Source: Candidatus Woesearchaeota archaeon CG1_02_57_44 (GTDB lineage: Archaea; Nanobdellota; Nanobdellia; Woesearchaeales; CG1-02-57-44). From it: a stretch of 20,000 nucleotides of DNA. Shown piece by piece: positions 1,660 through 19,885 of the stretch. The stretch's first letter is position 1. Every line of letters starts with the position of its first letter. Location of the stretch: NCBI GenBank assembly GCA_001871415.1, contig MNWW01000058.1, forward strand, positions 110,483-130,482, written 5' to 3'. Position numbers and translations under genes: made by a program. The notes under the pieces were generated by a model. The model saw nothing but the letters and a program-made list of their open reading frames with translations. It searched no databases and was not told the origin of the DNA.

Positions 1660-2154
1660 CTATTCTTCTTGATTTTTTTTCTTTGCGCTCGCTGCCGGGT
1701 TTCTTCGGGATCTGGCCCTCATATCTGAAACGCATTCTTCACAGGTCCCTCGCACCTCTATCTGGAAGCTGCTTATAGTCCCGGGTATCTTCTCCTGCAT
1801 GAAGTCGAGCGAGTCCACGTCGAAGTGGATGACTTCGCCTGTCTTCTCGCACACGAAGTGGCAATGGCTCATCTTGCTGGTCGTATAGACAGTCTTTCGG
1901 TTGCAGAGGTAGGAGCGCACCTCGCCCGTCCTCTTCTTGTCCCGCAGGAAGCGGTAGACCGTGGCGATGCCCATTGATCTTGCCTGCCGTGATGCATCCT
2001 GTCTCTTACATGCGCTGGTGTCTCCGCTGGTGTCTCCTTTGACTGGGGCTGCCTCGGCAGCTATCCTCAGCTGCTCTGCTGAAAAGAATGGGGGCATCTT
2101 GCGGAGCGCGGAACCCAATGCCTTGTACTGATGTGTGGTTCTGCTACGGGGCAT
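1660..2154 (-). CDS. Fur-family metalloregulator (probably Zur-like)
   Basis: Fur motifs: RTT-Q, FFSAEQL, GIATVYRFL, HCHFVCEKTG-V, C-terminal G-CEEC. AGGTGA SD upstream. Divergent from a ZIP transporter. Confidence 0.88.
   Translation of the reverse strand: MPRSRTTHQYKALGSALRKMPPFFSAEQLRIAAEAAPVKGDTSGDTSACKRQDASRQARSMGIATVYRFLRDKKRTGEVRSYLCNRKTVYTTSKMSHCHFVCEKTGEVIHFDVDSLDFMQEKIPGTISSFQIEVRGTCEECVSDMRARSRRNPAASAKKKNQEE
2014..2037. repeat. Perfect 12-bp tandem duplication within the Fur gene (encodes GDTS-GDTS)
   Basis: GCTGGTGTCTCC occurs twice, at 2014-2025 and 2026-2037. Confidence 0.9.
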
Positions 2155-2243
2155 GGTCTCACCTTCTAGGAAGATGTCTTGCTATGATTGTATTGCGTCA
2201 CTGATTGTTGCTGGACACGTGTCTCCTGCCAGGTGCTCTTGTT

Positions 2244-2277
2244 CTTATTGATATAGTAAATCAATAAGGTATATATA
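2244..2277 (+). promoter_or_regulatory. 25-bp palindromic operator abutting the TATA box of the ZIP gene
   Basis: CTTATTGATATA-G-TAAATCAATAAG (2244-2268) is a 12-1-12 inverted repeat with one mismatch. TATATATA at 2270-2277 ends 22 nt before ATG 2300. Confidence 0.8.
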
Positions 2278-2299
2278 GGTATGGGCATTCGCAATCTCC

Positions 2300-3052
2300 A
2301 TGCTCCTGGCAATCATCCTCGCCACCGTGCTCATAAGCTGCATATCGCTCGTTGGTGTGTTCTTCGGCGACGCGCACATCCGCAAGTTCATGCACTATTT
2401 CATCAGCTTCGCGGCCGCCGTGCTCATCGCTATCACTTTCTTTGACCTGCTTCCTGAGGCGCTGGAAGAATTGGAGCTCATGGGGGTGCATCTAGAACAC
2501 GCGCTGGTGTGGGTAGTCGTTGGCATCGTGCTCTTCTTTTTGGTCGAGCGATTCATCCACTGGCATCACTGCGATAAGGATGATTGCCATGAGAGGCCGG
2601 CGGGTATGCTCGTTCTGACCGGTGATTTTGTCCACAACTTCATTGATGGCCTGCTCATCGCTGGCGCTTTTCTGCTCAACGTGCCTACGGGCATCGTGAC
2701 GTCTATCAGCGTCGCTGTGCATGAGATTCCGCAGGAGATAGGTGATTACGCGGTGCTCATCCACAGTGGCTACTCCCGTGGCAGGGCGCTGTGGCTGAAT
2801 TTCCTCTCGGCGCTGTCTGCGGTTATAGGGGGCGTCCTGGGCTATTATTTATTTGATTCTTTCACGGGCATCGCGCCGTATGCCGTCCTGCTCGTCGCCG
2901 GAGGGTTCCTCTACATCGCGCTCTCTGATATCGTCCCGGCGCTGCATCGGCATCATTCAGAACGCAAGGTGCAGTTGCTGGAGACGCTGCTGTTTGTCGG
3001 TACCATGGTGGCGGTATACTTCCTGCTCGGCGCGCTGGGGCATGGGCACTGA
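2300..3052 (+). CDS. ZIP-family divalent metal (zinc) transporter
   Basis: Multiple hydrophobic helices, LLPEA motif, His-rich loop HWHHCDKDDCHE, HNFIDG and HEIPQEIGD signature motifs, FLYIALSDIVP. Leaderless start. Confidence 0.95.
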   Translation: MLLAIILATVLISCISLVGVFFGDAHIRKFMHYFISFAAAVLIAITFFDLLPEALEELELMGVHLEHALVWVVVGIVLFFLVERFIHWHHCDKDDCHERPAGMLVLTGDFVHNFIDGLLIAGAFLLNVPTGIVTSISVAVHEIPQEIGDYAVLIHSGYSRGRALWLNFLSALSAVIGGVLGYYLFDSFTGIAPYAVLLVAGGFLYIALSDIVPALHRHHSERKVQLLETLLFVGTMVAVYFLLGALGHGH

Positions 3053-3933: not shown

Positions 3934-5349
3934 TCACCTCGCCTCCCAGTGCGCCACCCTCGTCGTGCCGTGCAGACCATCCTGCAAGGAGAGGAGGGCG
4001 TCTCTGACGACATCAGGGCTGATATCGCAATACTGCCGCACGAAGAGGTCGCTGAGCAGGATATAATCGATATTGTCTTCGCTGAGCAGGTCAGTGCCTG
4101 TCATCTGTCCGTATCGCTCCACGATTGAGGGGTTCTGCATCGCCTGCTTGAAATATGCTGAGCCGGGAAGGACCTTGAGCATGTTGATGCTCATGTCATC
4201 GACGTTTGGCATGGTGGCCAGCTGCTCGATGAGCGCTACATTCCTCTGCAATGATCCTGCGCTCTCTCCCGGGATGCCCAGCACGAAGGATGGCATGACC
4301 GTGATGCCCTGCTCTCCCAGCAGTGCCACTTCCTCGACCAGCTTGTCGATGGTATAGGAACTTGCGTATCTTCCTTGCATATGGTCATTAGTCTGCCTGC
4401 TCTCAGCGAAGTAGCGCACGTTCTCCACGCCCATGAAGATGTTGACGAACCCTGCTCCTTTGAGCCTGCGCGCCAGGGTCTCGCCGTTCACCATGCCTGG
4501 GTGCAGGTAGCCTCGCAGTCTTGTGCCGCTCAGGTGATCCGGCCTCGTGGCGATGATGCCCTCGAGCGCCTGCACCGGGAAGATGTCAGCTGTCTCGAAG
4601 ACATAGTCGATGCCATAGTCTCGGTCCAACGCATCTATCTGCTCCCAGAATCTTTCTGGGCTCACATGGCGCCTTCCATTCACCGGGATACTGCAGTAGT
4701 CGCAGCGGTTCGTCCTGAAACATCCGCGAGCGGTGCTGACGGGAAAGGCACTGTGCGCCGCTGCGTCTTCACCGAGCCGCTGCCAGGTATAACCCCCCAC
4801 TAGCTGCTTTGGTGTCATGGGCGGGATTTCTTGCAGGTCCAGAGAATAATCCGGGGTGTTCTGGGTGATGGTTCCATCGCCCGCGCGATACGCGAGGCCA
4901 GGTATCTGCCCAAGGGGCGCGTGCTGCAGAAGCATCTGCAGGGCCTTCTCGCCATCGCCTTCAACGACATAGTCTGCTCCAGGTTGATTGCGCAGAATCC
5001 TTTCGGACATCCCGCTTGTGTTGGGGCCTCCTATGATAATCCCGGCATGCGGGTTGGTCTTCCTGACCTTCTCCACCAAACGCATTCCATCTCCGTGGCT
5101 GCTGAACCAGACGCTGATCCCTACATACGCTGCCTCTCTGGCCGCCTCCAGCATGGCGTCTTCACCATACCTTGGGCCATTGGCGTCGTAGACAGGGATG
5201 CTCTGGCCGGTCCTGCCCTCGATGTAGCTCGCGAGCGTGAGCAATCCTGTGGGCGGGATGTATCGCTGGTTGAGTGCCTGGCCGAGGGTGTGGCGAGGGT
5301 TGATGAGCAGGGCACGGGATGGCGCGCCTGCTTCGGGTCTGGCCTGCAT
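3934..5349 (-). CDS. Cobalamin-binding (class B-like) radical SAM protein
   Basis: N-terminal B12-binding-domain pattern (LLINP, PPTGLLTLASY, VGIS, IIIGGP, DYVVEGDGE). RGCFRTNRCDYC cysteine cluster. Radical SAM core elements (IFMGVEN, FVLGIPGES, PGS). Confidence 0.9.
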   Translation of the reverse strand: MQARPEAGAPSRALLINPRHTLGQALNQRYIPPTGLLTLASYIEGRTGQSIPVYDANGPRYGEDAMLEAAREAAYVGISVWFSSHGDGMRLVEKVRKTNPHAGIIIGGPNTSGMSERILRNQPGADYVVEGDGEKALQMLLQHAPLGQIPGLAYRAGDGTITQNTPDYSLDLQEIPPMTPKQLVGGYTWQRLGEDAAAHSAFPVSTARGCFRTNRCDYCSIPVNGRRHVSPERFWEQIDALDRDYGIDYVFETADIFPVQALEGIIATRPDHLSGTRLRGYLHPGMVNGETLARRLKGAGFVNIFMGVENVRYFAESRQTNDHMQGRYASSYTIDKLVEEVALLGEQGITVMPSFVLGIPGESAGSLQRNVALIEQLATMPNVDDMSINMLKVLPGSAYFKQAMQNPSIVERYGQMTGTDLLSEDNIDYILLSDLFVRQYCDISPDVVRDALLSLQDGLHGTTRVAHWEAR

Positions 5350-5350
5350 C

Positions 5351-6091
5351 CTACTCGCCCTCGACCTTGCTTGTGCGCTGGCCCCTCTTTATCTCATAGA
5401 TGCTGAAGTCGCCTCGCTGCAGGCCTTCGGCAGAATCGATGCGCTCCTGCTTGCTGACATGATAGCCGAACCGTTCTGCATGAGCCGCTGGATCGTTCTT
5501 CGGCCCTGCGAAATGAAAATAGGGCATGACGATGACACCACGGGGCTCCAGATGGTCCTTCGCATCGACCAAGAACCTGTTGATGAGGTCGGTGCCGCCC
5601 AGCATGGAGGCGCCAAGACCCTTGGGGTCTTGACCCATTGCCTCGGGACGTTCAGGGAAGAACGGGTGATTGAATACGATGCATTCATAGCGTGTGTTTG
5701 GCAATGTGTCGAACAGGTCGCTCTCGTAGCAGGCCACCCTGTCCTGCAGGCCGGACAATCGGGCGTTGTATCCTGCATCGGCCACTGCCAGCGGGTTGAT
5801 GTCGGCGAGGTCGACATCAGCCGCCCCGAGCATCGCCATGAGCAGGCCTTGGGTGCCCGGGCCGCAGCCCATATCAAGGCATCGTCTGCCCGCGAAGAGG
5901 TTCTGGTTCGCATGCAGGTATCGGGCCAGCAGGATGCCTGAGCTCATGATGTCAGAGCCGAACACGCCATTGCTGATGCGCAGGGGCAGCTGCAGATGCT
6001 CGCTCACAGGAACGTTGTAGGTTCCGGTCGGCCTATCGTGGCGTGCTATCTGCCCTAGGACCTGCGCTGCCTGCTCCTGTGTCAAGGTCAT
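5351..6091 (-). CDS. Class I SAM-dependent methyltransferase (HemK/PrmC-like fold)
   Basis: LDMGCGPG motif I, ADINPLAV..A..N, SDLF, and IVFNHPF at the position of NPPY/F. GGAGGTGA SD. Stop codon lies 1 nt from the radical SAM ATG. Confidence 0.88.
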   Translation of the reverse strand: MTLTQEQAAQVLGQIARHDRPTGTYNVPVSEHLQLPLRISNGVFGSDIMSSGILLARYLHANQNLFAGRRCLDMGCGPGTQGLLMAMLGAADVDLADINPLAVADAGYNARLSGLQDRVACYESDLFDTLPNTRYECIVFNHPFFPERPEAMGQDPKGLGASMLGGTDLINRFLVDAKDHLEPRGVIVMPYFHFAGPKNDPAAHAERFGYHVSKQERIDSAEGLQRGDFSIYEIKRGQRTSKVEGE

Positions 6092-6170: not shown

Positions 6171-6332
6171 TTACCCTTGGGGGTCGTAGTTTATGTCTAT
6201 CCTGGCCACTATTGCTTCTTGGCCGTCCATTTGGCTCATTCTGTGTGGGGGGCGGGGAAAAATAGTGAAAATACTGTCCCCTTTGGGGGTCTGATAGGAA
6301 GTTTTTTATGCAGCAATGCCTTGGATATCCTT

Positions 6333-7079
6333 GTGGAACCACGAATCCTTCAGGACATCGGCCTGACCGATGGAGAGGCGCGCGTGTATCTCGCGCTGCT
6401 CGCTTTGGGGGAATCAAAGACAGGACCGCTCGCCAAAGAGGCACGAGTCTCATCATCCAAGGTGTACAAGATCCTGGACCGCCTCATGGTCAAGGGACTC
6501 ACTGGCTTTGTCACCAAAGGAAAGACAAAATATTTCTCAGCAGTGGACCCCCAGCGGCTGCGCGAGTTCGTGGCGCGTCAGGAACAAGAGCTTGAGCGCA
6601 GGCGGACTGTGGTGGAGCGGCTCATCCCTGAGCTGGAGACGGCGCAGAATCTTGCCCGCAAACCAGATGCGGTGGTGTACGATGGATTCAAGGCAACCAC
6701 GAACTTCTTTCGCAGCCTGCTCGAGGAGCTCGGCAATGGTGATGAGTATCGCGTGCTCGGCGGCAACTATGGCACGACACAGGGGCTTCGGCCATTCTTT
6801 CAGAACTATCATCGGCAACGTGCGGCAAAGGGCATCAAGGTGCGGATGCTCGCCAACCATGGGGTGCTCGGCAACATCGAATCCACCACCCTGCAGCAGG
6901 CTGAGGTGCGCTATCTGCCGGAACGCTTCGTGTCGAGCATGCAGGTCACCTTCTATGGCAGCAAGGCGTTCATCACCTTCTGGACCAGATCTCCGACGGG
7001 ATTTCTCATCAATGACCCTGAGGCAGTCAGCAGCTTCGGCTCGTACTTTGATGCGTTGTGGCTGATGGGCGAGAAGTGA
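6333..7079 (+). CDS. TrmB-family transcriptional regulator, 248 aa
   Basis: IGLTDGEARVYLALL..G...LAKEARV....VYKILDRL..KG winged HTH, then a coiled coil and a C-terminal effector-domain-like region. Start reassigned to GTG 6333 by alignment to the paralog (MDTRILEDLG vs VEPRILQDIG) and TTTTTTAT (6302-6309) 23 nt upstream. Confidence 0.9.
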   Translation: MEPRILQDIGLTDGEARVYLALLALGESKTGPLAKEARVSSSKVYKILDRLMVKGLTGFVTKGKTKYFSAVDPQRLREFVARQEQELERRRTVVERLIPELETAQNLARKPDAVVYDGFKATTNFFRSLLEELGNGDEYRVLGGNYGTTQGLRPFFQNYHRQRAAKGIKVRMLANHGVLGNIESTTLQQAEVRYLPERFVSSMQVTFYGSKAFITFWTRSPTGFLINDPEAVSSFGSYFDALWLMGEK

Positions 7080-7421: not shown

Positions 7422-8336
7422 CTACCTTACGGGCGCAAGCCATGTCGCGTGCTCCGCGTCCTCGCCCGCGATGACCTTGCTGAAGGCTGCCTGCAGTTGC
7501 TTGGTCACCGGGCCGGGCTTGCCGGTCCCGATGGTCCTGCCATCGACCTCGCGAACAGGAGTCAATTCTGCCGCAGTCCCTGTCAGGAACATCTCATCAG
7601 CGAGATACACATCGTCGCGGGTCAGGCGCGCCTCTGCGGTCGGTATGCCATGCTCCTTTGCCAGGACCATGACCGATTGGCGCGTGATGCCAGGCAAAAA
7701 GCTCGTGAACACAGGCGTTGTCAATATGCCATCGCGTACGATGAAGATATTCTCACCCGACCCCTCCGCAACATAGCCGTCCACGTCGAGCACCATGGCC
7801 TCATCATATCCGTTGCTCACGGCTTCGTGCTTGGCGAGCACGCTGTTGACATAGGCGCCGCAGACCTTCGCGCGGGTCATATTGATGTTGACGTGATGTC
7901 GCGTGAAGCTGGAGGTCTTGACGCGGATGCCATTGGCGACGCCATCTTCGCCAAGATATGTTCCCCATTCCCATGCGGCTATGGCGACGTTGACCGTGCA
8001 GCCGACCGGGTTCAGGCCCATCTGTCCGTAGCCAAGATATATGATTGGTCTGATGTAGGCGGAGGGTAATTTATTCTTGGTGATGATGTCCCTGCATGCC
8101 TGTGTTATCATTTCTTTGCTGAACGGTACCTTGATCCCAAGGATGTGCGCTGAGCCGAAGAGTCTATCGACGTGCTCCTTGAGGCGAAAGACAGCTGGGC
8201 CCTGCTTTGTCGCATAGCAGCGGATGCCCTCAAAGACGCCGGTGCCATAATGGAGCGCGTGGGTGAGCACATGCACCTGCGCGTCCTTCCATGCGACAAG
8301 CTCGCCGTCCATCCAGATGAACTTGGATTCCTTCAT
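7422..8336 (-). CDS. ilvE: Branched-chain amino acid aminotransferase
   Basis: [65 protein letters not shown] class IV aminotransferase of the IlvE type. Confidence 0.97.
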
Positions 8337-8359
8337 GGGGCGAGGTGAGCAGGATGATG

Positions 8360-8424
8360 ATTATAAATGTTTGGCGGGCGTGAAAACCTCCCGGATGGGT
8401 CTTCTTCAGCATAACCTTTAAATA
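8360..8424. promoter_or_regulatory. Back-to-back TATA boxes for ilvE (-) and the leader-leuA transcript (+)
   Basis: TTTATAAT on the - strand (8367-8360) is 23 nt before the ilvE ATG. TTTAAATA (8417-8424) is 23 nt before ATG 8448. Confidence 0.75.
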
Positions 8425-8447
8425 TCGCCTCCCATTCTTTGTTGCAC

Positions 8448-8522
8448 ATGCACGACAACCATTCCATCACGGGCTCTGCCATTATCGGTAAGAGCGTCCT
8501 TCTGCTCGTGCTAGTCCTATAG
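8448..8522 (+). CDS. Putative BCAA leader peptide (MHDNHSITGSAIIGKSVLLLVLVL)
   Basis: The ATG sits at the predicted transcription start. The last 8 codons are GTC CTT CTG CTC GTG CTA GTC CTA, all Val or Leu, and there are 3 Ile codons. It ends 53 nt before leuA. Confidence 0.8.
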   Translation: MHDNHSITGSAIIGKSVLLLVLVL

Positions 8523-8539
8523 CCCGGGCAATCCTGGGC
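8522..8539 (+). promoter_or_regulatory. GC-rich hairpin at the leader stop codon
   Basis: GCCCGGG-CAAT-CCTGGGC forms 7 bp with one G-U pair. No U-tract follows. Confidence 0.6.
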
Positions 8540-8575
8540 CAGTGCATTGTCTTGAACCTTACAGGGGGTACTACC

Positions 8576-10135
8576 ATGAATACGGTAAGAATCTTTGACA
8601 CAACACTTCGGGACGGAGAGCAGACACCGGGCGTCTCATTCACGCTGCAGGAGAAGCTTATGATAGCGAAGCAGCTTGAGCGCCTCGGCGTCGATATCAT
8701 CGAGGCAGGTTTTCCCATCGCGAGCAAGGGGAGCTTTGATGCTGTCCATCTCATAGCCAAGGAAGTCCGCAAGCCGGTCATCTGCGGGCTCGCGAGGACG
8801 GTCGACAAGGATATCAAGGCTGCGGCCGAGGCGCTCAAGGGCGCTGAGCGCGCAAGGATACACACATTCATCGCGACCAGCGACATTCATCGCGACCACA
8901 AGCTCAAGAAGACCAAGGAGCAGGTGGCGCAGATGGCGCGCGACGCGGTCAAGCTTGCCCGGACGTTCACGGATGATGTGGAGTTCTCGCCTGAGGACGC
9001 CAGCCGGACAGACCTCGACTATATGTGCGCGGTGGTCGAGGAAGCGGTCGCGGCGGGTGCCACGACCATCAACATCCCTGACACGGTCGGCTACGCACAG
9101 CCGCAGGAATATGAAGAGCGCATCCGCTATGTCCAGGAGAAGGTGCCCAACATCAAGGGACTTGCCATCAGCACGCACTGCCACGACGACCTTGGCCTGA
9201 GCGTCGCCAATTCGCTCGCCGCGGTCAAGGCAGGGGCGACGCAGGTGGAATGCACCATCAATGGCATCGGCGAGCGCGCTGGCAACACGTCCATGGAAGA
9301 GGTGGTGATGGCCATCAGGATGCGCGGGGCATACTACAGCGCCACGACCAACATCAACACCCGCGAGCTGTTTCGCACCAGCCAGATGGTCGCGCGCTTC
9401 AGCGGCATCACGCCACAGCGCAACAAGGCCATCGTGGGCGCGAACGCGTTCGCGCACCAGGCTGGCATCCACCAGCACGGGGTCATCAGCAACAAGCGCA
9501 CCTATGAGATCATGGACGCCGAAGACGTCGGCTGGGAAGGAGAGAACCTTGTCATCGGAAAGCTCTCGGGCAAGCACGCCATCAAGGAGGCACTGACCGA
9601 AGCGGGTTTTGAGCTCACGGAGGATCAGCTGCTCAGCGTCACGGAGAAGGTCAAGGACCTTGGCGATAAGCAGAAGAGCATCCATCGCGATGATGTGGTC
9701 GCTATCGCCATCGATGTCCTGTCCGCCCTGAGCCCGAAGGAGGATCGCATCAAGCTTGATGAGCTCAGTGTCTTCACGGGCAATCGGGTCACGCCGAGCA
9801 GCACGGTCGGTGTCAGCATCGACGGCCAGCGTCACATCGGCTCTGCCACCGGCGTCGGTCCGGTGGATGCTGCCGCAAAAGCCTTAAAGAGCGTCATCGG
9901 CCCGGGCTTTTTGCTCAAGGAATACAACCTGAAGGCCATCACGGGCGGTACCGATGCGCTGGCGAATGTGGCCATCAAGATGGAGGATGAGGAGCATAAT
10001 GTCTTCACCTCCGAGGCGGTCGATGAAGATGTCATCATGGCGAGCGTGAAAGCAATGATCAAGGGCGCCAACAAGGCGTACCACTTCAAGACACAGCAGG
10101 ATTTGCGACAAGGTGAGCGACATGAAAGGAAGTGA
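8576..10135 (+). CDS. leuA: 2-isopropylmalate synthase, 519 aa
   Basis: IFDTTLRDGEQ, EAGFP, EFSPEDASRTD, NIPDTVG, HCHDDLG, GERAGN, PQRNKAIVG.NAFAH..GIHQ.G, and a C-terminal regulatory domain (G.GPVDA). ATG 8576 follows a GGGGGT SD. A citramalate synthase paralog is not strictly excluded. Confidence 0.9.
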   Translation: MNTVRIFDTTLRDGEQTPGVSFTLQEKLMIAKQLERLGVDIIEAGFPIASKGSFDAVHLIAKEVRKPVICGLARTVDKDIKAAAEALKGAERARIHTFIATSDIHRDHKLKKTKEQVAQMARDAVKLARTFTDDVEFSPEDASRTDLDYMCAVVEEAVAAGATTINIPDTVGYAQPQEYEERIRYVQEKVPNIKGLAISTHCHDDLGLSVANSLAAVKAGATQVECTINGIGERAGNTSMEEVVMAIRMRGAYYSATTNINTRELFRTSQMVARFSGITPQRNKAIVGANAFAHQAGIHQHGVISNKRTYEIMDAEDVGWEGENLVIGKLSGKHAIKEALTEAGFELTEDQLLSVTEKVKDLGDKQKSIHRDDVVAIAIDVLSALSPKEDRIKLDELSVFTGNRVTPSSTVGVSIDGQRHIGSATGVGPVDAAAKALKSVIGPGFLLKEYNLKAITGGTDALANVAIKMEDEEHNVFTSEAVDEDVIMASVKAMIKGANKAYHFKTQQDLRQGERHERK

Positions 10136-11852
10136 GGTCATCGTCAAGTGCCTGCAGCAGCAGGGCGTGCAGGACATCTTCGGCATCACCGGAGGCGCGG
10201 TCATACCGCTCTATGATGCCCTCTACGACCATCAAGATACCATCCGCAACATCATCTGCCGTCATGAGCAGGGGGCGGCGCACATGGCGGCCGGCTTCGC
10301 GCGCGCCAGCGGCAAGCCCGGTGTGTGCGTCGGCACGTCAGGGCCCGGAGGCAGCAACATGATTACGGGCATCATGGACGCGTTCATGGACTCGACGCCG
10401 ATGGTCGCGATGGCGGGGCAGGTGCCGGTCTCTTTCATCGGCAAGGACGCGTTTCAGGAGACGGACATGATAGGGCTCACCATGCCCATCACCAAGCATA
10501 ACTTCCAGGTCCGGGATCCTGAGAAGCTTGCTGAGACACTGGTCAAGGCATTCAAGCTGTCCACAGAAGGGAGGCCGGGGCCCATCTACATCGACCTTCC
10601 CAAGGACGTGCAGAACGCCACGGTCAAGGGTAGCATCCCAAAGGATGTCACCATCCCATCGTATCGGCCGCGTGTCAAGCCAAACCTGTACCAGATCAAG
10701 AAAGCCGTGACCGCGTTGCTCAAGGCAGAGCGCCCGCTCATCATCGCGGGCGGCGGATGCATCATCGCGGGCGCCAAGGACGCGCTCGCAGCGTTCGTCA
10801 ATGCCTCGCACATCCCAGTCAATACCACGACCATGGGAAAAGGCATCTTCAATGAGGCGCATCCGCTGGCGCTCGGTGTCATGGGCATGCATGGCACAGA
10901 GGAAGCCAACTACGCAGCGGTCCACACGGATTGCATGCTTGCCATCGGTTGTCGGTTCTCTGATCGCATCACGGGCGATACCAGCTTGTTCGCGCAGGGC
11001 GCTATTGTCATCCACGCGGACATCGACCCCAGCGAGATAGGCAAGAACGTGCGCGTCGACATCCCGGTTGTGGGGGACGCGGCAGAGACCATCAAGCTGC
11101 TCACGCAGGTCTTCCTTGAGGAGAAAGGCAAGGATAAACACAAAGGCTCCGCATGGGTCAAGGCGCTCGAAGAGCTTCGCCAGATAGGCGAGAGCCATAA
11201 GGCGCGCGATGTCAAGGGCATGACGCAATCAAACATGATAACGCAGCTGGGCAGGTTCCTCAAGCAGGAGGATATCGTCACCACGGGCGTCGGCCAGCAT
11301 CAGATGTTCGGAGAGCACTACCTGCGGCGCACCCTGCCGCGCACCTGGATAACTTCGGGCGGCGCGGGCACTATGGGCTACGGCCTGCCAGCGGCGATCG
11401 GCGCCAAAGTGGCGGTTCCTGACCGGGAGGTCTATGACCTTGATGGTGATGGCAGTTTCCAGATGACCAGCCAGGAACTCGCGACTGCCAAGCAGTTCGG
11501 CATCAAGGTGACGCCGGTCCTCATGAACAACCAGTACCTTGGCATGGTCAAGCAGTGGCTCGACCTGTTCCAGGAGAGGCGGCATTCAGGCATCCACTTC
11601 AGCGTTAACCCTGACTTCGTCAAGCTGGCTGAGGCGTATCATCTGTCCGGCATCTCTGTCACACGGGAATCAGAGCTGGTCCCCGCGCTGCAGCAGGCGC
11701 GCAAGGCCGATGAGACCGTGCTTATCGATGTGCACGTCGACCCGGAGGATAATATCTTCCCCATGCTGCCGCCTGGCAAAGGGCTGCAGCACATCATCGG
11801 CGGCAAGGCCTACTTCACCAAGACCTGGGACGAGGTCCGGCAGGGCAAGTAG
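10122..11852 (+). CDS. ilvB: Acetolactate synthase large (catalytic) subunit, 576 aa
   Basis: RHEQGAAHMA, TSGPG, DAFQE, GRPGP, GMHG, RFSDR, TGVGQHQM, GTMGYGLPAAIGA, and the ThDP motif GDGSFQM...NN. ATG 10122 follows AGGTGA. Confidence 0.96.
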   Translation: MKGSEVIVKCLQQQGVQDIFGITGGAVIPLYDALYDHQDTIRNIICRHEQGAAHMAAGFARASGKPGVCVGTSGPGGSNMITGIMDAFMDSTPMVAMAGQVPVSFIGKDAFQETDMIGLTMPITKHNFQVRDPEKLAETLVKAFKLSTEGRPGPIYIDLPKDVQNATVKGSIPKDVTIPSYRPRVKPNLYQIKKAVTALLKAERPLIIAGGGCIIAGAKDALAAFVNASHIPVNTTTMGKGIFNEAHPLALGVMGMHGTEEANYAAVHTDCMLAIGCRFSDRITGDTSLFAQGAIVIHADIDPSEIGKNVRVDIPVVGDAAETIKLLTQVFLEEKGKDKHKGSAWVKALEELRQIGESHKARDVKGMTQSNMITQLGRFLKQEDIVTTGVGQHQMFGEHYLRRTLPRTWITSGGAGTMGYGLPAAIGAKVAVPDREVYDLDGDGSFQMTSQELATAKQFGIKVTPVLMNNQYLGMVKQWLDLFQERRHSGIHFSVNPDFVKLAEAYHLSGISVTRESELVPALQQARKADETVLIDVHVDPEDNIFPMLPPGKGLQHIIGGKAYFTKTWDEVRQGK

Positions 11853-11991
11853 CAACCACCCTGCAGCACATACGGTGCCCCTGGTGGAACGTCGGGACTG
11901 GCAGAAGAATCCCTTCGCAGCGGGGCAAGGGCGCAGGGCGACGCGTTGCGGAAATGCGTCCGACAATACCATAAACAATAAAACAGGATTC

Positions 11992-12019
11992 AATCCCACA
12001 ACACGAATCCCACAGCACG
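11992..12019. repeat. 14-bp tandem repeat with one mismatch, ending at the ilvN SD
   Basis: AATCCCACAACACG followed by AATCCCACAGCACG. Confidence 0.8.
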
Positions 12020-12030
12020 AGGCGATACCT

Positions 12031-12660
12031 ATGTACAGCGACAAGAAAGAATGGCACCCATCACACAGGCATGTCATCAGCCTGATGGTGGTCGATGAGC
12101 CAGGAGTGCTCACCCGCATCAGCAACATGTTCTTCAAGCGCAACTTCAACATCGACACTCTGACCGTCAGTCCCAGCATCATCAATGGGCAAAGCCGCAT
12201 CACGCTGAGCTTCTTTGGCGACGATTCAGTCTATGAGCAGCTCATCAAGCAGCTCAACAAGCTCATCGACGTCATCAAGGTATCAGACTTGCCCAAGGGC
12301 GATACGGTCATCAGGGATTTGTGCCTGGTGCGCGTCACGGCCAAGGACGCGGCCACGCAGAACCAGCTCATCAACTACTGCCGCTTCTATCGCGCGCGCA
12401 TCGTCGATGCCACGCATGATGATCTCATGGTCGAGATGGTGGGCAAGCCCGAGAAGATAGACGCGTTCCTCGAGCTTGTAGGGCCCTTGGGCATCAAGGA
12501 GGTATCGCGCACAGGCGTCACGGCGCTCGCCCGCGGCAATGGGGTGAAAGGCAATGGGATGAGGGGGAATGGCGTGAAGGGCAACGGCAGCGTGAGCGGC
12601 GCCTCCACGAGCGCGGGCAGCAAGACCGCAGGCTCTCCTGATGGAGGGGATGTGCGATGA
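12031..12660 (+). CDS. ilvN: Acetolactate synthase small regulatory subunit, 209 aa
   Basis: ACT domain [17 protein letters not shown]...[34 protein letters not shown] 12031 follows GAGGCGA. The 11539 start in the ORF track is over-extended. Confidence 0.93.
12535..12588 (+). repeat. Degenerate 15-bp in-frame tandem repeat ([18 protein letters not shown]) in the IlvN tail
   Basis: GGCAATGGGGTGAAA / GGCAATGGGATGAGG / GGGAATGGCGTGAAG / GGCAACGGC. Confidence 0.8.
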
Positions 12661-14099
12661 CCAAGCACGCTGGCAAGACGCTCTATGACAAGATCTTTGA
12701 CCTGCATACCGTGAGGCAGCTGCCTACTGGTCAATATCAGCTCTTCATCGGCCTGCACCTGGTGCATGAGGTGACCAGCCCCCAAGCATTCGCGATGCTC
12801 CGGGAACGTGGACTGAAGGTGGCTTATCCAGAGCGCACGTTCGCGACCGTGGATCACATTGTCCCCACGCACGACCAGAAACGCCCCTACCAGGATGCGC
12901 AGGCAGAGAAGATGATAGCGGCAATGGAATCGAACGCGAAGGAGTTCTGCTTCATGCTCTACAATACGCAGAGCGGCAAGCAGGGCGTGGTGCACATCAT
13001 CGGTCCCGAGCTTGGCCTGACGCAGCCAGGCATGACCATCGCATGCGGCGACTCGCACACCAGCACGCACGGCGCGTTCGGCGCCCTCGCGTTCGGCATC
13101 GGCACCAGCCAGGTCCGGGATGTGCTGGCCACGCAGACGCTCGCCATCAACAGGCTCAAGGTCAGGCGCATCAATGTGACAGGCAGCCTGAAGCCAGGTG
13201 TCTACGCAAAGGATGTCGTGCTCGCCATCATCCGCAAGCTGGGCGTGAAAGGCGGCATCGGTTATGCCTATGAATACGGAGGCAGTGCCATTGAAGCACT
13301 GAGCATGGAAGGCAGGATGACGCTGTGCAACATGACAATAGAAGGGGGTGCTCTGTGCGGTTATGTCAATCCTGACAAGACGACGTTCAGCTACCTGCAG
13401 GGCCGCGAGTTCGCGCCTGGTCTTGACGCATGGGATCGCGCGGTCGCGTTCTGGAGCAGCATGGCATCGGACGCTGACGCGGTCTATGATGATGTGGTGG
13501 AAATAGACGGTTCAGTGCTCTCGCCCATGGTCACCTGGGGCATCAATCCCGGACAGGCCATAGGCATCGACGAGAACGTGCCTGACCCTGCCAGCATGAT
13601 CGCTGATGAGGCGCAAGTGGCATCGCGGGCATTGGCGCACATGGGACTTGTTGCGGGACAGCCAATCACGGGAACACCGGTGGATGTGGTCTTCATCGGC
13701 AGCTGCACCAATGGCAGGCTGTCTGACCTGCGCGAGGCGGCCAGGATAGCGAAGGGGAAGAGGGTGCACGCGGGCGTGAAAGCGCTCGTCGTCCCTGGCA
13801 GCCAGCAGGTCAAGAAGACGGCGGAAGCAGAAGGCCTCGACAAGATCTTCACTACGGCGGGCTTCGAGTGGCGCAGCGCTGGGTGCAGCATGTGCCTTGC
13901 GATGAACCCAGACAAGCTGCAGGGCAACCAGCTTTCGGCGAGCAGCAGCAACCGCAACTTCATCGGCAGGCAGGGCAGCCCCACGGGCAGGACACTGCTC
14001 ATGAGCCCTGCCATGTGCGCGGCCGCGGCGATCGCAGGAAAGGTCGTGGATGTGCGGGCGGTCGATGTGCGTGCGGCAGCTGCGCTGGAGGTGAGGTGA
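12657..14099 (+). CDS. leuC: 3-isopropylmalate dehydratase large subunit
   Basis: [55 protein letters not shown] overlap with ilvN. Confidence 0.97.
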
Positions 14100-14759
14100 A
14101 TGGCGAAGCATATCATCGAGGTGTCTGGCAGAGGGGTCGTGGTCAGGGGCAATGACATCGACACAGACCGCATCATCCCTGCGCGCTACATGAAGGAGAT
14201 AACCTTCGACCATATGGGCGAGTACGCGTTCTATGATGAGCGCTTTACGCAGGAATTGGGTCGGGATGGCAAGCCGCAGCAGAAGGCGCATCCCTTCAAT
14301 GACGTACGCTTCCGGGGTGCGTCCATCCTGCTCGTCAACAAGAACTTCGGCTGCGGCAGCTCGCGCGAGCACGCTCCCCAGGCGCTCATGCGCTGGGGCA
14401 TCACCGCGATAGTTGGCGAGAGCTTCGCTGCCATCTTCGCGGGCAACTGCACCATGCTGGGCATACCGACCCTGACAGTATCGTCGCAGGAAATCGAGGA
14501 GCTGATGCAGCAGGTAGAGGCGCATCCGCAGGAACAGCTGGTGCTGGACATCGCGGCAGTCCGGATCGCCGCGGGCAACCTGCGGGGGGAGGCGTCCATG
14601 CCTGAATCCATCAGGAAGGCACTTACCGAAGGCACCTGGGATTCGACATCGCTGTTGCTGGACGGCAAGGACGCCATAGCGGCGCTGGCGAAGCGATTGC
14701 CGTACCTTAACACCTTCCGCGGAGGGTCGCAGGGCACAGGCGACGTCGGGAGAGCGTAG
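14100..14759 (+). CDS. leuD: 3-isopropylmalate dehydratase small subunit
   Basis: DIDTDRIIPARY, NFGCGSSREHAPQAL, SFA.IF..N. Abuts leuC, with a GGAGGTGA SD. Confidence 0.97.
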   Translation: MAKHIIEVSGRGVVVRGNDIDTDRIIPARYMKEITFDHMGEYAFYDERFTQELGRDGKPQQKAHPFNDVRFRGASILLVNKNFGCGSSREHAPQALMRWGITAIVGESFAAIFAGNCTMLGIPTLTVSSQEIEELMQQVEAHPQEQLVLDIAAVRIAAGNLRGEASMPESIRKALTEGTWDSTSLLLDGKDAIAALAKRLPYLNTFRGGSQGTGDVGRA

Positions 14760-14807
14760 GGCATTCACGTATGTGACGAGCATTCCTGCACATAACGAGA
14801 ACCATAA

Positions 14808-15923
<1,116 letters not shown>

Positions 15924-15977
15924 GATTGTCGCATGCGATGGAATGATGTGCGCGGTGGATGGTTATCCCGCGACAAA

Positions 15978-16040
15978 CATAAATAGGAGAGGGTTATCGG
16001 AAGCACCATGATTGGGGCCGCAAGGGCCCCGACGCGTTGA
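15978..16040 (+). promoter_or_regulatory. Putative internal ilvC promoter and 5' leader with hairpin
   Basis: CATAAATA at 15978-15985. ATG 16008 lies 22 nt later and opens a 10-codon ORF (MIGAARAPTR). Hairpin GGGGCC-GCAAG-GGCCCC at 16014-16030. Confidence 0.5.
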
Positions 16041-16072
16041 TACAGACTTTCAATACACCATAGGTGAATACC

Positions 16073-17119
16073 ATGAAACCAATCAAGGATCCGAACGGAA
16101 AAGTCATCGCTGAACTGCTGCAGGACGAAGACGTGACGTCATCGCTTTCTGGCAAGAAGCTCGCGGTCATCGGCTATGCCTCCCAGGGACGAGGACAGAG
16201 CCTCTGCTATCGCGACAGCGGCGTCGACGTGATTGTCGGTCTGCGCAAAGGCGGCGCGAGCTGGGCCCGTGCGCTAGAAGACGGCTGGGCGCCAGGCACG
16301 ACGCTGATGGAGATACCTGACGCGGTCAAGGCGGCTGACATCGTGCTGCTGCTCATCGCGGACACAGCGCAGCCAGAAGTCTATGCCAAGAGCATCGCGC
16401 CATCGCTTTCTGCTGGTAAGATGCTGGTGTTCTCGCATGGCTTCAATATCCATTTCAAAGGGATTGCGGCGCCCAAGGATGTGGACGTCGCCATGATCGC
16501 TCCTAAAGGCCCTGGCTTCGTGGTGCGCCAGGAATACGAGAAGGGTTTCGGTGTGCCCGCGCTCGTCGCTGTGCATCAGGACGCGTCGGGTTCTGCATGG
16601 GATCTTATCCTGGCCATGGCAAAGGCCATTGGCGCGACAAAGCCAGGCGTCCTGAAGACCACGTTCAAGGACGAAGTCGAGAGCGACCTGTTCGGTGAGC
16701 AGGTGGACCTCTGCGGCGGCGTCGTGGAGATGGTCAAGCACGCGTATGAGACGCTCATCGAGGCCGGCTACAATCCTGCGCTCGCGTACTGGGAAGTGCA
16801 CCATGAATTGTACGGGCTTATCGCGCCGCTCGCCTACCAGTACGGCAACTATGGTATGCTCTCACGCGTGTCATTGACCGCGCGTAAAGGTGCGGTTGTC
16901 TCGGGTCCAAGGGTCATGACCGCTGATGTCAAAGAGCGCATGAAGGAATGTTTGGTGGACATCCAGTCGGGCAAGTTCGCCAAGGACTGGATGGCTGAAT
17001 ACAAAGAGCACGGGTACGCCAAGCTGAACGCGGAGCTTGACATGCTGAAAGCGCATCAACTGGAAGTCGTAGGCAAGCAGGTACGGCGCATCATGTGGCC
17101 CAAGAAAGACGTGGAGTGA
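16073..17119 (+). CDS. ilvC: Ketol-acid reductoisomerase (class I), 348 aa
   Basis: AVIGYASQG, VIVGLR...S, FSHGFNIHF, DV.MIAPKGPG..VR..Y..G.GVP, SDLFGEQ..LCGG, I.SG.FA. ATG 16073 follows AGGTGA. Confidence 0.95.
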   Translation: MKPIKDPNGKVIAELLQDEDVTSSLSGKKLAVIGYASQGRGQSLCYRDSGVDVIVGLRKGGASWARALEDGWAPGTTLMEIPDAVKAADIVLLLIADTAQPEVYAKSIAPSLSAGKMLVFSHGFNIHFKGIAAPKDVDVAMIAPKGPGFVVRQEYEKGFGVPALVAVHQDASGSAWDLILAMAKAIGATKPGVLKTTFKDEVESDLFGEQVDLCGGVVEMVKHAYETLIEAGYNPALAYWEVHHELYGLIAPLAYQYGNYGMLSRVSLTARKGAVVSGPRVMTADVKERMKECLVDIQSGKFAKDWMAEYKEHGYAKLNAELDMLKAHQLEVVGKQVRRIMWPKKDVE

Positions 17120-17182: not shown

Positions 17183-19885
17183 CTATCTGCGGCCAAACCA
17201 GTGTCCGATGGCTTCACTGATGTCCTTGTTGGTTGTCTGCTCGCAGACCGCCTCGATGGCACGCTGCGGGCTCCAGGCTGGATTCTGGATGTAGGTCAGC
17301 GGAGCGACAAGGTGGGTGAGCTGCTGGGCAGCGTAGAGTATCTGTCCGCTTACCCTGATCCTGTCCTGGTATGCGTCCTGCACCACGGCGTGGGAAGGAT
17401 CGCCGGGCCACTGCTCCGCGATGCGCTGCAATGATAATTTTCGCAGGATGTCATGCTCGCTTCTGGCCCAAGCGGAAGGCGGGTCGCTCCTATTGAACAA
17501 CCCAGGTTCGACCTGGTTCTTGGAGCAGTCATAGAGGAACGCGGCGCGTGTCAGGGTCTCCACTTGCTCCTTTCCGATGATGCGTTTCTCTGCCAGACGC
17601 GTGCAGATGAGATTCGTCGCCAGGGCGCGCATGAGCGAGCCATACAGATTGCCGGTCACAGCGTCGAAGCGCGCGATATTGATGCCTGGAATATCCACCA
17701 TGGTCTCGAGGGGTCCCCATATCTCACCTTCCCTTCTCGGCAATGCTCGCGCCTCGCGGTAGGGTGCATCTTCCAGATGCAACGCTGACTCGCGGATGAA
17801 GATGGCGGATTGCAGGTTCGTCTGCCAGTATTCGATCAATCGTGCCTGCAGCTTCTGTTGGCCTGCCGCGCGCGAGCTCGGGTCGACTTTGTAGGGGTTG
17901 TCGAGCACCAGATAGATGCCGGTCAGGTCATGGGCCGTGACCGGTTCTTCCAGGCCTTTTATCGATGTCGGCGCCCATTCCTGGAGTGTGAAGGAATATC
18001 TGGCAACAGCAGCAGTGGCTGGGCCGAGCATGACATGTCCTGGGACCTTGGTGACGGCGCCCTCCATACGGCTGGCGATATTCACATCATCGCCCATGAC
18101 CGTGTACGCTGGTTTCTGCGGCGCACCTGATGAGCCAGATATCACGTCGCCCGAATTGATGCCGATGCGGATGCCCATTTCCCGTTTCGGTGTACCGTCC
18201 GGGTGATGGTACATCTCCCGTATGCACCATGCTGCCAGGCACATCTGTTCAACATGCGCGTTGCTCGCCCGTTCCTGGTCAGGGGTGTCGCCGATAGGCA
18301 GTCCTCCTATCGCCATGATGGCGTCACCTTCATACTTGTCGACCCAGATGCCTAGTCCCATGAGCGCCCCGACCATTGGCGTATTGATGTCTATCATGGT
18401 CGTGTTGATTACCTGCGGCGCCTGTTCCGGTGTGCCTGCATCCAGCATGCGTTGCCTCACGCTTCTGGACCATGCCGTGAACCCTGCCGCGTCAGTGAAC
18501 AACATGGTCGCCGGGTGGTGTGTGGACGTGAGCGTACCGTCCACCAGCGCCCTGCCTATGCCTCTTGGCAGCATCTGCGTGAATGCGGCAGCGTACTTGG
18601 CGGTTTGTTCAACCGCGCTTCGCAGCTGTTCCTGCGCAAGGACCACGCGCTGGGTCCTGGCTTGTTGCGCGGCAAGCGCTGCCTGCAGATCATCTATCTG
18701 ACGGGAATAACCAAAGGGGCTGGCGGCCCGGGCCAACAGGTTGGGCAGGAGTCCCTGCTGGTCCCAGATGGTGTAATGTACACACGTTGGCGTCATGCCC
18801 GTCACTTCAGGCATCTGGGATTTTCCACGCGGTCTGTTATCCTGGGTTATGGTCGCCTGATGCTGTACATTGTAGAACTGGTCCTTGCGCAACACCGACC
18901 TGCCATTGACATCTACGGCATGGGTGCAGAGGAATGCGATATTGGGGTCTTCTGGCCACATGAATTCCCCGACACGGGTCATGGGAATGTAGTCTGAACG
19001 CAAGCGCTGATAATCCATGCCCTCGATGGGAGTCAGCTGATCGATTAGCTCATCACGGCTGCGGCTCTTCTGGAAGGGCAGCAATGTCGGAGGACTGAGC
19101 ATGGTCACAAATGAGCCAACAATCGCGCCATTGAAATACAGGTCAGGGCCATTGCGATAGATGTCCGCATCAAGGTTGAACAAGTCCGCGGATTCGCGCA
19201 AGATCTGCATGACATCGCAGCCACAGTGCGTCTCGACCAGGTGCGTGTTTTCCTCCCGTTTGCCGATGGAGGGCATATAGGCGTATACGCCTGTGGTGAA
19301 ATGGCAGTCCCACAGGCGTGGCGGCACCAGGTACGCACTGAAGACAAGGCCCTGCTGAGGGTCTCGCAGACCGTCATCGGTAAACGGGCGAAGCAGGTTC
19401 TGGAACTGGTGCGTATGGCTCAGCATGGCGCTGAGTACACTTGTGGTTCCTCCTAGTCTGCTGAGCGTCGCCAGGCCACTGAGGGTCGCTCCTCCCTGGT
19501 TAAGGTCATAGTAGTGGTATCCCGCGTCATAGAGCGCCAAGGGGTCCTGGAAATGGTCTACGATGGCGGTGACTACCTGACTGACCTCCTGGTAGGTTGC
19601 GCCATCATCCGGTTCCAGCGGTAATGCCGTCTTTTGCAGCCACGGCGCGGCCTCAAGGAGCCATTCCAGTACTTCCCGGTTTTTTGGGTCCTTGATGGAT
19701 GGTGCGCTCATGGCCGCAGGCGGCATGCGCTTGCCATCGCGTGCTTCCAAGCTGCGCACCAGCGCGTACTGTACCACTGTCATGACATTCCTGCCAAAGA
19801 CCATGGGGCTATAGCTGGAGAGCCACGAATGCGTCAGCATGTCTTCAAGCCCTAAAGGGTCTGCCATGGGCAACAGGTGTGGCAT
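17183..19885 (-). CDS. Multidomain class III adenylate/guanylate cyclase with an N-terminal sensor-like region and a degenerate HD-GYP-like C-terminus
   Basis: Cyclase motifs TMLFTDAAGFTAWS, VDKYEGDAIMA, IRIGINSG and YTVMGDDVNIASRMEG, preceded by a Q/A-rich coiled coil. The start may instead be ATG 19867, which has TATA-like ATTATTAA 23 nt upstream. Confidence 0.88.
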   Translation of the reverse strand: MPHLLPMADPLGLEDMLTHSWLSSYSPMVFGRNVMTVVQYALVRSLEARDGKRMPPAAMSAPSIKDPKNREVLEWLLEAAPWLQKTALPLEPDDGATYQEVSQVVTAIVDHFQDPLALYDAGYHYYDLNQGGATLSGLATLSRLGGTTSVLSAMLSHTHQFQNLLRPFTDDGLRDPQQGLVFSAYLVPPRLWDCHFTTGVYAYMPSIGKREENTHLVETHCGCDVMQILRESADLFNLDADIYRNGPDLYFNGAIVGSFVTMLSPPTLLPFQKSRSRDELIDQLTPIEGMDYQRLRSDYIPMTRVGEFMWPEDPNIAFLCTHAVDVNGRSVLRKDQFYNVQHQATITQDNRPRGKSQMPEVTGMTPTCVHYTIWDQQGLLPNLLARAASPFGYSRQIDDLQAALAAQQARTQRVVLAQEQLRSAVEQTAKYAAAFTQMLPRGIGRALVDGTLTSTHHPATMLFTDAAGFTAWSRSVRQRMLDAGTPEQAPQVINTTMIDINTPMVGALMGLGIWVDKYEGDAIMAIGGLPIGDTPDQERASNAHVEQMCLAAWCIREMYHHPDGTPKREMGIRIGINSGDVISGSSGAPQKPAYTVMGDDVNIASRMEGAVTKVPGHVMLGPATAAVARYSFTLQEWAPTSIKGLEEPVTAHDLTGIYLVLDNPYKVDPSSRAAGQQKLQARLIEYWQTNLQSAIFIRESALHLEDAPYREARALPRREGEIWGPLETMVDIPGINIARFDAVTGNLYGSLMRALATNLICTRLAEKRIIGKEQVETLTRAAFLYDCSKNQVEPGLFNRSDPPSAWARSEHDILRKLSLQRIAEQWPGDPSHAVVQDAYQDRIRVSGQILYAAQQLTHLVAPLTYIQNPAWSPQRAIEAVCEQTTNKDISEAIGHWFGRR

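Follow-up and report, generated by a model that had tools for sequence, protein, structure and literature searches.

The short open reading frame upstream of leuA in the window (the whole stretch of DNA analyzed, 20,000 nucleotides) is very probably a gauge of leucine and valine read by the ribosome, that is, an attenuator that would sense charged tRNA through its last codons. A leader with cognate codons precedes 96 of 104 leuA/cimA genes in 62 genomes, and the amino acids encoded at the leader tails match the content of the operon. The proposal of the first-pass annotation of this DNA that the Leu/Val codons are the sensor is borne out by these counts. The control of leuA translation that it derived from them is treated separately below.

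Judged from its gene content, the host is an archaeon of the Woesearchaeota type. The genome (1.53 Mb, 82% complete) encodes TBP, an archaeal 16S rRNA with the anti-SD at its 3' end, and FttA/aCPSF1, which was identified by profile search (TIGR03675, 879 bits, above the cut-off). The named homologs nearest to the LeuA of the window belong to Woesearchaeota/Nanoarchaeota. This LeuA is about 50% identical to bacterial LeuA, and a scan of named genomes gave bacterial LeuA alone. The operon has the order leuA-ilvB-ilvN-leuC-leuD-leuB-ilvC, and ilvE is divergent from it. The genes and the promoter elements are as follows.

7422-8367, minus strand: ilvE, divergent and without a leader peptide; a TATA-like box at 8360-8367 lies 31 nt upstream of its ATG.
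8417-8424, plus strand: archaeal TATA box TTTAAATA, 31 nt upstream of the leader ATG.
8448-8522, plus strand: leader mini-ORF of 24 codons, MHDNHSITGSAIIGKSVLLLVLVL-stop.
8496-8519, plus strand: control codons Val17 to Leu24 (5 Leu and 3 Val), reaching the stop codon, as read from the sequence.
8576-10135, plus strand: leuA, 2-isopropylmalate synthase of the bacterial type, with ATG at 8576 (TIGR00973 and NF002086 above the cut-off).
10113-17119, plus strand: the remaining operon genes ilvB, ilvN, leuC, leuD, leuB, and ilvC.

Because the TATA box is located 31 nt upstream of the leader ATG, the transcript is probably leaderless; its start, placed from this spacing and from the absence of an SD, would be at or adjoining the AUG. 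An imperfect inverted repeat at 8382-8404, between the TATA boxes of ilvE and of the leader, is a possible regulator site. Farther out, the window contains a TrmB-family gene (6177-7079), a ZIP zinc transporter gene divergent from that of a Fur-family regulator (1660-3052), and, in the intervals 3934-6091 and 17183-19885, a B12-binding radical SAM gene adjoining a methyltransferase gene and a gene for a 900-aa protein with an adenylate/guanylate cyclase domain that converges on ilvC. The genome has one identical stretch of 17 nt, with the codons for Gly-Ser-Ala-Ile-Ile-Gly, in its leuA leader (8472-8488) and in its cimA leader (L022). The identity suggests duplication or conversion between the two leaders, as far as the letters can tell, and the common stretch also supplies Ile codons to the leuA leader.

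Within the order, 90 of 401 genomes contain LeuA/CimA-family genes; four genomes in this tally are flagged as unpublished, and the other results do not draw on them. In a phylum-wide search, LeuA-like genes turned up in the same order alone among those searched (23 of 301). Upstream DNA was examined for 114 gene rows, which are a part of all LeuA/CimA matches. Five short or distant paralogs, a gene whose start falls outside the contig, a truncated row, and three rows flagged as unpublished were left out, giving 104 genes, and two rows were reassigned by hand to the class leuA_II. A leader was called when its last ten codons contained at least five Leu/Val or at least three Ile. Leaders precede 34 of 35 genes in the close leuA class and 15/18, 32/35, and 15/16 in the other three classes; 83 of them were identified by a TATA-plus-ATG rule, with composition deciding where several candidates were available, and one was chosen manually. 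The TATA-to-ATG spacing is 30 to 33 nt in 80 of the 88 leaders having a TATA match, and an SD is present before 1% of the leader starts versus 67% of the enzyme starts. One leader with Ns was left out, so that 95 leaders were used in the structure and codon tests. Related genomes are not independent, and the p-values given below are indicative only.

The last eight codons consist of 62% Leu and 29% Val in the close leuA class, 75% Leu in the distant leuA class, and 62% Ile in both cimA classes, and the last cognate codon is 0 or 1 codons from the stop in 94 of the 95 leaders. CTA and CTG are enriched about twofold in the control codons relative to the enzyme genes. In a tally made by eye, at least two Val codons occur among the last ten at all 26 leuA genes that have ilvB next, and Val is absent from the last ten codons in all three leuA leaders with leuB, leuC, or ilvE next (six leuA loci were too short for the tally). 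That the frame is no sensor, and encodes a small hydrophobic membrane peptide or arose by chance, is very improbable. The tails are hydrophobic and of nearly transmembrane length, as would be expected of such a peptide, but their composition follows the pathway (Leu/Val, Leu, Ile, Trp, or His) and the N-terminal part of the peptides is unconserved. Moreover, when the 149 TATA-plus-ATG mini-ORFs of the genome are ranked by tail enrichment, the leuA leader is first and the cimA leader is third.

Leaders ending in Trp were found at 16 of 30 trpE loci and leaders ending in His at 9 of 30 hisG loci, both being hand-picked sets with no formal null. The trpE leaders (L234 to L260) have the form M-x-S-D-C-x-W-x, followed about 10 to 30 nt past the stop by a conserved GAGTTTTATNTAG-like motif, and the His leaders end alike in D/G-C-x-H. 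Tandem arrangements are present at L064, L065, L071, and L073 (leuA) and at L229 (his), where a leaderless Leu-run or His ORF is followed by an SD-led ORF and then by the enzyme gene. At L026, L054, L066, and L070, small SD-led ORFs are located between the leader and the enzyme gene, some of them overlapping the enzyme start. At L008, leuA is apparently split into two frames near residue 80, and the leader is intact. A Leu/Val-rich mini-ORF was found at 7 of 69 named-genome loci with bacterial LeuA. Four bacterial leuA loci (L148, L152, L186, and L191; three titled Planctomycetota or its subgroups) have leaders with Leu-Leu-Leu-Arg-Arg-type tails, in which the control codons are again C-terminal.

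The RNA features considered between the leader and leuA are listed below; all folding results are equilibrium predictions.

8522-8539, plus strand: post-stop hairpin of 7 bp (one G-U) with a CAAT loop, beginning within the stop codon.
8503-8513 with 8520-8530, plus strand: alternative helix of control codons with the stop codon and the 5' arm of the hairpin; it excludes the hairpin and is the minimum free energy (MFE) fold of the free leader.
8496-8504, plus strand: proposed anti-SD stretch, complementary to the SD region; predicted not to form and not above chance.
8556-8569, plus strand: leuA SD AGGGGGU (8563-8569) with a leader-independent local hairpin of 8556-8560 with 8565-8569; predicted to be partly paired.
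8506-8579, plus strand: second possible basal helix, 8506-8518 with 8566-8579, over the 3' half of the SD and the AUG (duplex −12.7 kcal/mol).

The hairpin described in the first-pass annotation is present, and no U-tract follows it (0 terminator-like sites in 8200-8800). A hairpin starting at most 8 nt from the stop is found in 65 of the 95 leaders, versus 14 of 151 and 23 of 245 ordinary gene ends as called by a crude ORF rule. The rate of about 9% at such ends rules out a general gene-end feature of the lineage. Two-sided (compensatory) changes of the hairpin were observed in 4 of 10 and 7 of 8 pairs in two subfamilies, with the window in neither. MAFFT/RNAalifold gave no consensus structure from the divergent leader sets, and the hairpin is mostly missing from the trp (1/16) and his (0/9) leaders. 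In the naked RNA of the window, its predicted probability is 0.04 in the free leader and 0.97 with 8485-8520 held single-stranded; the former value is low because the helix of the control codons with the 5' arm (−14.4 kcal/mol, z −2.3) outcompetes it. A pair of mutually exclusive helices is not conserved, as 3:4 is found in 11 and 1:2 in 6 of the 95 leaders at z < −1.64, and in the window leader the 1:2 alternative is present and 3:4 is absent. Within 50 nt of the stop, U4 tracts show no enrichment (22 to 67% of leaders versus 36 to 48% of ordinary gene ends), and the hairpin loop of the window has none. U accounts for a fraction of 0.41 to 0.50 of the control codons and for 0.45 of the loop zone. 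The search for Rfam leader families gave no relevant match in the window at E values up to 5 and none in nine loci at the gathering score. Pairing of the control codons with the 3' arm of the hairpin was also considered and was unspecific in every class (p 0.07 to 0.87). Many of the hairpins in cimA1 and leuA_I have GCCA at their end and a CATTGTTTCT-like motif after it, and this motif can, in cimA1, weakly pair with the Gly-Ile codons of the leader.

The first-pass annotation had further proposed that the control codons sequester the leuA SD unless a stalled ribosome covers them. The complementarity itself exists: CCTTCTG (8498-8504, within leader codons 17 to 19) matches CAGGGGG (8562-8568) over 7 bp including two G-U pairs, the isolated duplex amounts to −8.3 kcal/mol, and the extension of 8496-8497 with 8570-8571 across a 1-nt bulge can be drawn. 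It is at chance level because a G-rich SD faces Leu/Val codons that are rich in pyrimidines. Among 2000 synonymous recodings of the last ten codons, 78.5% give an uninterrupted helix of at least 7 bp with the SD region and 31% give a duplex as stable as the native one, and the leaders of other genomes pair with the SD of the window almost as well (median −9.35 versus −10.8). In the folded leader, the predicted probability of the anti-SD helix is 0.000, and it is at most 0.026 with the 5' end covered. The best fold holding this helix is 5.0 to 9.1 kcal/mol above the MFE (37 °C, four 3' ends), and the outcome is the same for the four 3' ends and for two temperatures. The ribosome footprint was taken as about −15 to +12 from the A site. 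Opening of the SD costs 3.58 kcal/mol in the free RNA and 3.57 to 3.80 kcal/mol in 14 ribosome-covered states. In the comparison set beforehand as the refuting test, with 8485-8520 held single-stranded, the cost is unchanged (3.58 versus 3.58 kcal/mol). The pairing is not conserved in homologous leaders either: the cognate value for leuA_I is −8.52 versus −8.34 for non-cognate combinations (p 0.31), and a second test of leuA leaders likewise gave cognate pairing no better than non-cognate (p 0.29). Based on the recoding, cross-genome, and partition-function tests, the 8498-8504 helix is rejected for the window genome as the control of leuA translation. The argument that a missing U-tract implies translational control does not transfer to this host, an archaeon with FttA/aCPSF1, because archaeal termination needs no hairpin-plus-U terminator (PMC13675443).

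Translational attenuation in a broader form, in which freed control codons form a basal stem over the leuA initiation region and a stalled ribosome opens it, is rather unlikely, with evidence on both sides. In the window, such a stem would more likely be 8506-8518 with 8566-8579, a register more stable than 8498-8504 with 8562-8568, and polarity or coupling would carry the effect along the operon. Its predicted probability varies from 0.08 to 0.64 with 5' coverage, and the highest value, obtained in one condition, speaks for this alternative. However, local hairpins take over when this register is blocked, so that the gain is no more than 1.0 kcal/mol; under all conditions the window gains 0.0 to 1.0 kcal/mol, less than with recoded codons (mean gain in SD access 1.77 versus 0.23 for the native codons). 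The topology of the first-pass annotation, in which the control codons form the base of a stem enclosing the hairpin, is predicted for a minority of relatives: for three out of the four leuA leaders in one family and for 7 of 13 leaders in one cimA class, in most cases at a distance from the SD.

The family with L041, L050, and L051 speaks for such a stem, and L050 is the leader with the strongest predicted occlusion of the SD. These three of its four leuA leaders gain 6.9 to 8.3 kcal/mol of SD access on stalling and are predicted to form a helix of 8 to 16 bp between the control codons and the SD region (16 bp in one case), which fits translational control better than gating of FttA. One-sided changes in the consensus stem of the four sequences also speak for it, and the absence of a double-sided compensatory change speaks against it. 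Strong helices near position −16 from the start are found in 13 of 79 leaders versus 6.9 expected, and with the last 12 codons alone free, 14 of 28 leuA_I leaders gain at least 1.5 kcal/mol. The test of uninterrupted helices in leuA_I gave p 0.012, with the one 16-bp case far above the rest. Against these stands, besides the equality of cognate and non-cognate pairing, the result over all classes: with the last 12 codons alone free, a gain of at least 1.5 kcal/mol is seen in 32 of 84 native versus 30 of 84 recoded leaders (eleven skipped), and native codons beat recoded ones in 47 of 84. Stalling shifts SD opening by less than 0.5 kcal/mol in 59 of 90 leaders and gains at least 1.5 kcal/mol in 17 of 90 (five were too long). 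The gap from the leader stop to the enzyme start ranges from 22 to 346 nt across the relatives, and one enzyme start in three lacks an SD by the criterion used. A permutation test of the cimA1 SD region gave p 0.016, as one of eight tests, uncorrected and with a recoding z near 0. In the cimA2 class, a basal helix is specific (p 0.0006 to 0.0014), is fixed at about 40 nt past the stop irrespective of the position of the start (7 of 13 versus 1.8 expected), and in most cases ends a good way upstream of the SD. The proposed SD partner in the window, at 42 nt past the stop, may be an echo of this cimA2 topology or a coincidence. Translational occlusion may be the real mechanism in some lineages.

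Here, we propose that the leader gates termination of the FttA type at its stop codon and hairpin, a model that as a whole has, in our estimate, somewhat less than an even chance of being right. Every conserved feature is anchored on the leader stop and not one on the start that follows, a pattern suggesting that the decision falls near the RNA polymerase. Such a decision would be made within 40 to 50 nt around the leader stop, with the polymerase still close by, and not at the leuA SD. The leaderless transcript would start at the leader AUG. When charged tRNA-Leu or tRNA-Val is scarce, the ribosome would dwell on the last eight codons; when they are plentiful, it would reach the stop and leave. 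The dwelling ribosome would mask the U-rich control codons, and the post-stop hairpin would fold over its pyrimidine-rich arm and loop, so that FttA/aCPSF1 would have no substrate and the polymerase would proceed into the operon. A finishing ribosome would melt the 5' arm and depart, exposing the stretch to cleavage and termination. With the polymerase 30 to 50 nt past the stop, the zone engaged by FttA would extend from the final control codons across the 5' arm into the loop, all of them comparatively rich in U. The accessible text of PMC11616081 describes FttA as engaging nascent RNA from −1 to −36 (about 36 nt threaded), cleaving at −22, and preferring U at −23 and at −30 to −36. Archaeal termination can be hairpin-free or linked to cleavage (PMC13681488 and the available portion of PMC13675443). 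Against the FttA model are the lack of U4 enrichment, the scarcity of the hairpin in the trp and his leaders, and the lack of a conserved exclusive helix pair; Leu, Val, and Ile codons are moreover U-rich regardless of any role of FttA. A stalled ribosome uncouples the polymerase, which should by itself favor FttA, and the model thus depends on timing.

Two other outputs use the same position of the hairpin. In the first, stalled ribosomes and the hairpin as a roadblock would shield the leaderless message from 5'-3' decay of the aCPSF1/RNase J type, and the message would be degraded when Leu/Val is ample. The protection of mRNA by a stalled ribosome has a precedent in ermC and RNase J1. Stabilization would need neither a given gap length nor an SD, the hairpin is so placed that a ribosome translating the last codons would run into it, and the FttA present in the genome has 5'-3' exonuclease capability according to the accessible text of PMC11616081. 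A stable hairpin would, however, impede 5'-3' decay in both states, and the stop-anchored basal helix of cimA2 is left unexplained; we consider this alternative improbable. In the second, the hairpin would only insulate against re-initiation, like a ribosome-termination structure, and ribosomes on the last two or three codons would open it and allow loading downstream. The start of the hairpin at 0 to 8 nt from the stop agrees with such a role, as do several short-gap cimA1 leaders whose SD access improves with a ribosome at the stop (for example, L090 from 9.2 to 3.3 and L112 from 8.8 to 2.8) and L064, in which the hairpin of the first leader covers the SD and AUG of the second. The sign of the response is doubtful, since a ribosome that moves fast arrives at the stop more often. 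Most gaps are also too long, and the SD of the window is unaffected by a ribosome at the stop; we regard insulation as quite improbable. Returning to gated termination, it is possible, and we say so with more reserve than for the leuA leader, that Woesearchaeota carry genome-wide leaderless attenuators for Leu/Val, Leu, Ile, Trp, and His, some of them tandem, and that these control access of the CPSF73-like nuclease FttA through a ribosome held at the stop together with the hairpin behind it.

Leader-peptide attenuation is a textbook mechanism of bacteria. Our search of open-access full text found no published case of it in archaea; the accessible text of a ribosome-profiling study in archaea (PMC7261190) speaks of uORFs but not of attenuation, and a bacterial survey does not treat archaea in its available part (PMC2965389). 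The roughly 100 natural leaders with matched codon runs are a direct handle on regulatory transcription-translation coupling in archaea. They also bear on whether FttA termination can be conditional; steric exclusion of FttA is put forward as an untested hypothesis in the accessible text of PMC11616081. If the proposed mechanism is true, amino-acid attenuation would operate via cleavage-linked termination, from archaeal promoters, on bacterial-looking enzyme genes. The leader family also indicates that DPANN cells, supposedly minimal, exert fine control over amino-acid synthesis. The leader content can also be used to annotate paralogs, with Leu indicating LeuA and Ile indicating CimA. A seven-base-pair mechanism would matter less, as it would repeat the design of the LEU element and the poly-Cys leaders discussed below.

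The enterobacterial attenuators leuL, ilvL, ivbL, trpL, and hisL have codon runs matched to their pathways, with multivalent sensing of Leu and Val for a mixed operon. The pathway-matched run is common to the leuL/ilvL type and the archaeal leaders, as is Leu plus Val for a mixed operon. Unlike in the leuL/ilvL type, the control codons here end at the stop, there is no 2:3/3:4 switch and no U-tract terminator, and the promoter is archaeal and leaderless. Factor-dependent attenuation is exemplified by Escherichia coli tnaC and Rho. There as here, a ribosome at the leader end is proposed to deny the termination factor its RNA site; the differences are that the factor here would be the nuclease FttA/aCPSF1, in a putative role, and that the signal would be tRNA shortage and not a stalling peptide. 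Rho and uORFs are likewise connected in factor-dependent attenuation in Mycobacterium tuberculosis, according to the available part of the report (10.1101/2022.06.01.494293).

The LEU element of Actinobacteria, as described in the accessible text of PMC1262725, likewise has an upstream ORF with a Leu run before leuA and no terminator, and the basal stem proposed for it, between Leu codons and the SD, is nearly the model of the first-pass annotation. In contrast, the host here is archaeal, and a basal stem of Leu codons with the SD is neither conserved nor favored. The LEU element is drawn there with a pseudoknot, whereas the archaeal leaders, folded with tools that predict no pseudoknots, have a simple post-stop hairpin and a spacer of unconserved length, and the archaeal design also precedes cimA, with Ile codons. 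The same text doubts leader translation as the signal, whereas the codon content here follows the operon content. The leader thus works like a leader-peptide attenuator and is a member of neither the classical family nor the LEU element: it is not a classical attenuator because it has no terminator, no switch, and no Rfam match, and it is not a LEU element because the basal stem does not hold.

The archaeal leaders are closest in layout to the mycobacterial poly-Cys leaderless ORFs. Ms5788A, in the accessible text of 10.1101/834739, is alike in being a leaderless mini-ORF with a C-terminal cognate run, no intrinsic terminator, and co-regulated loci, and together with the LEU element (PMC1262725, as far as its available text goes) it is a precedent for translational attenuation. 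By that account, the codon run of Ms5788A has been demonstrated to lock the SD into a single, very stable fold, whereas such sequestration is predicted in a minority of the archaeal leaders, which also differ in having a conserved hairpin that starts at the stop.
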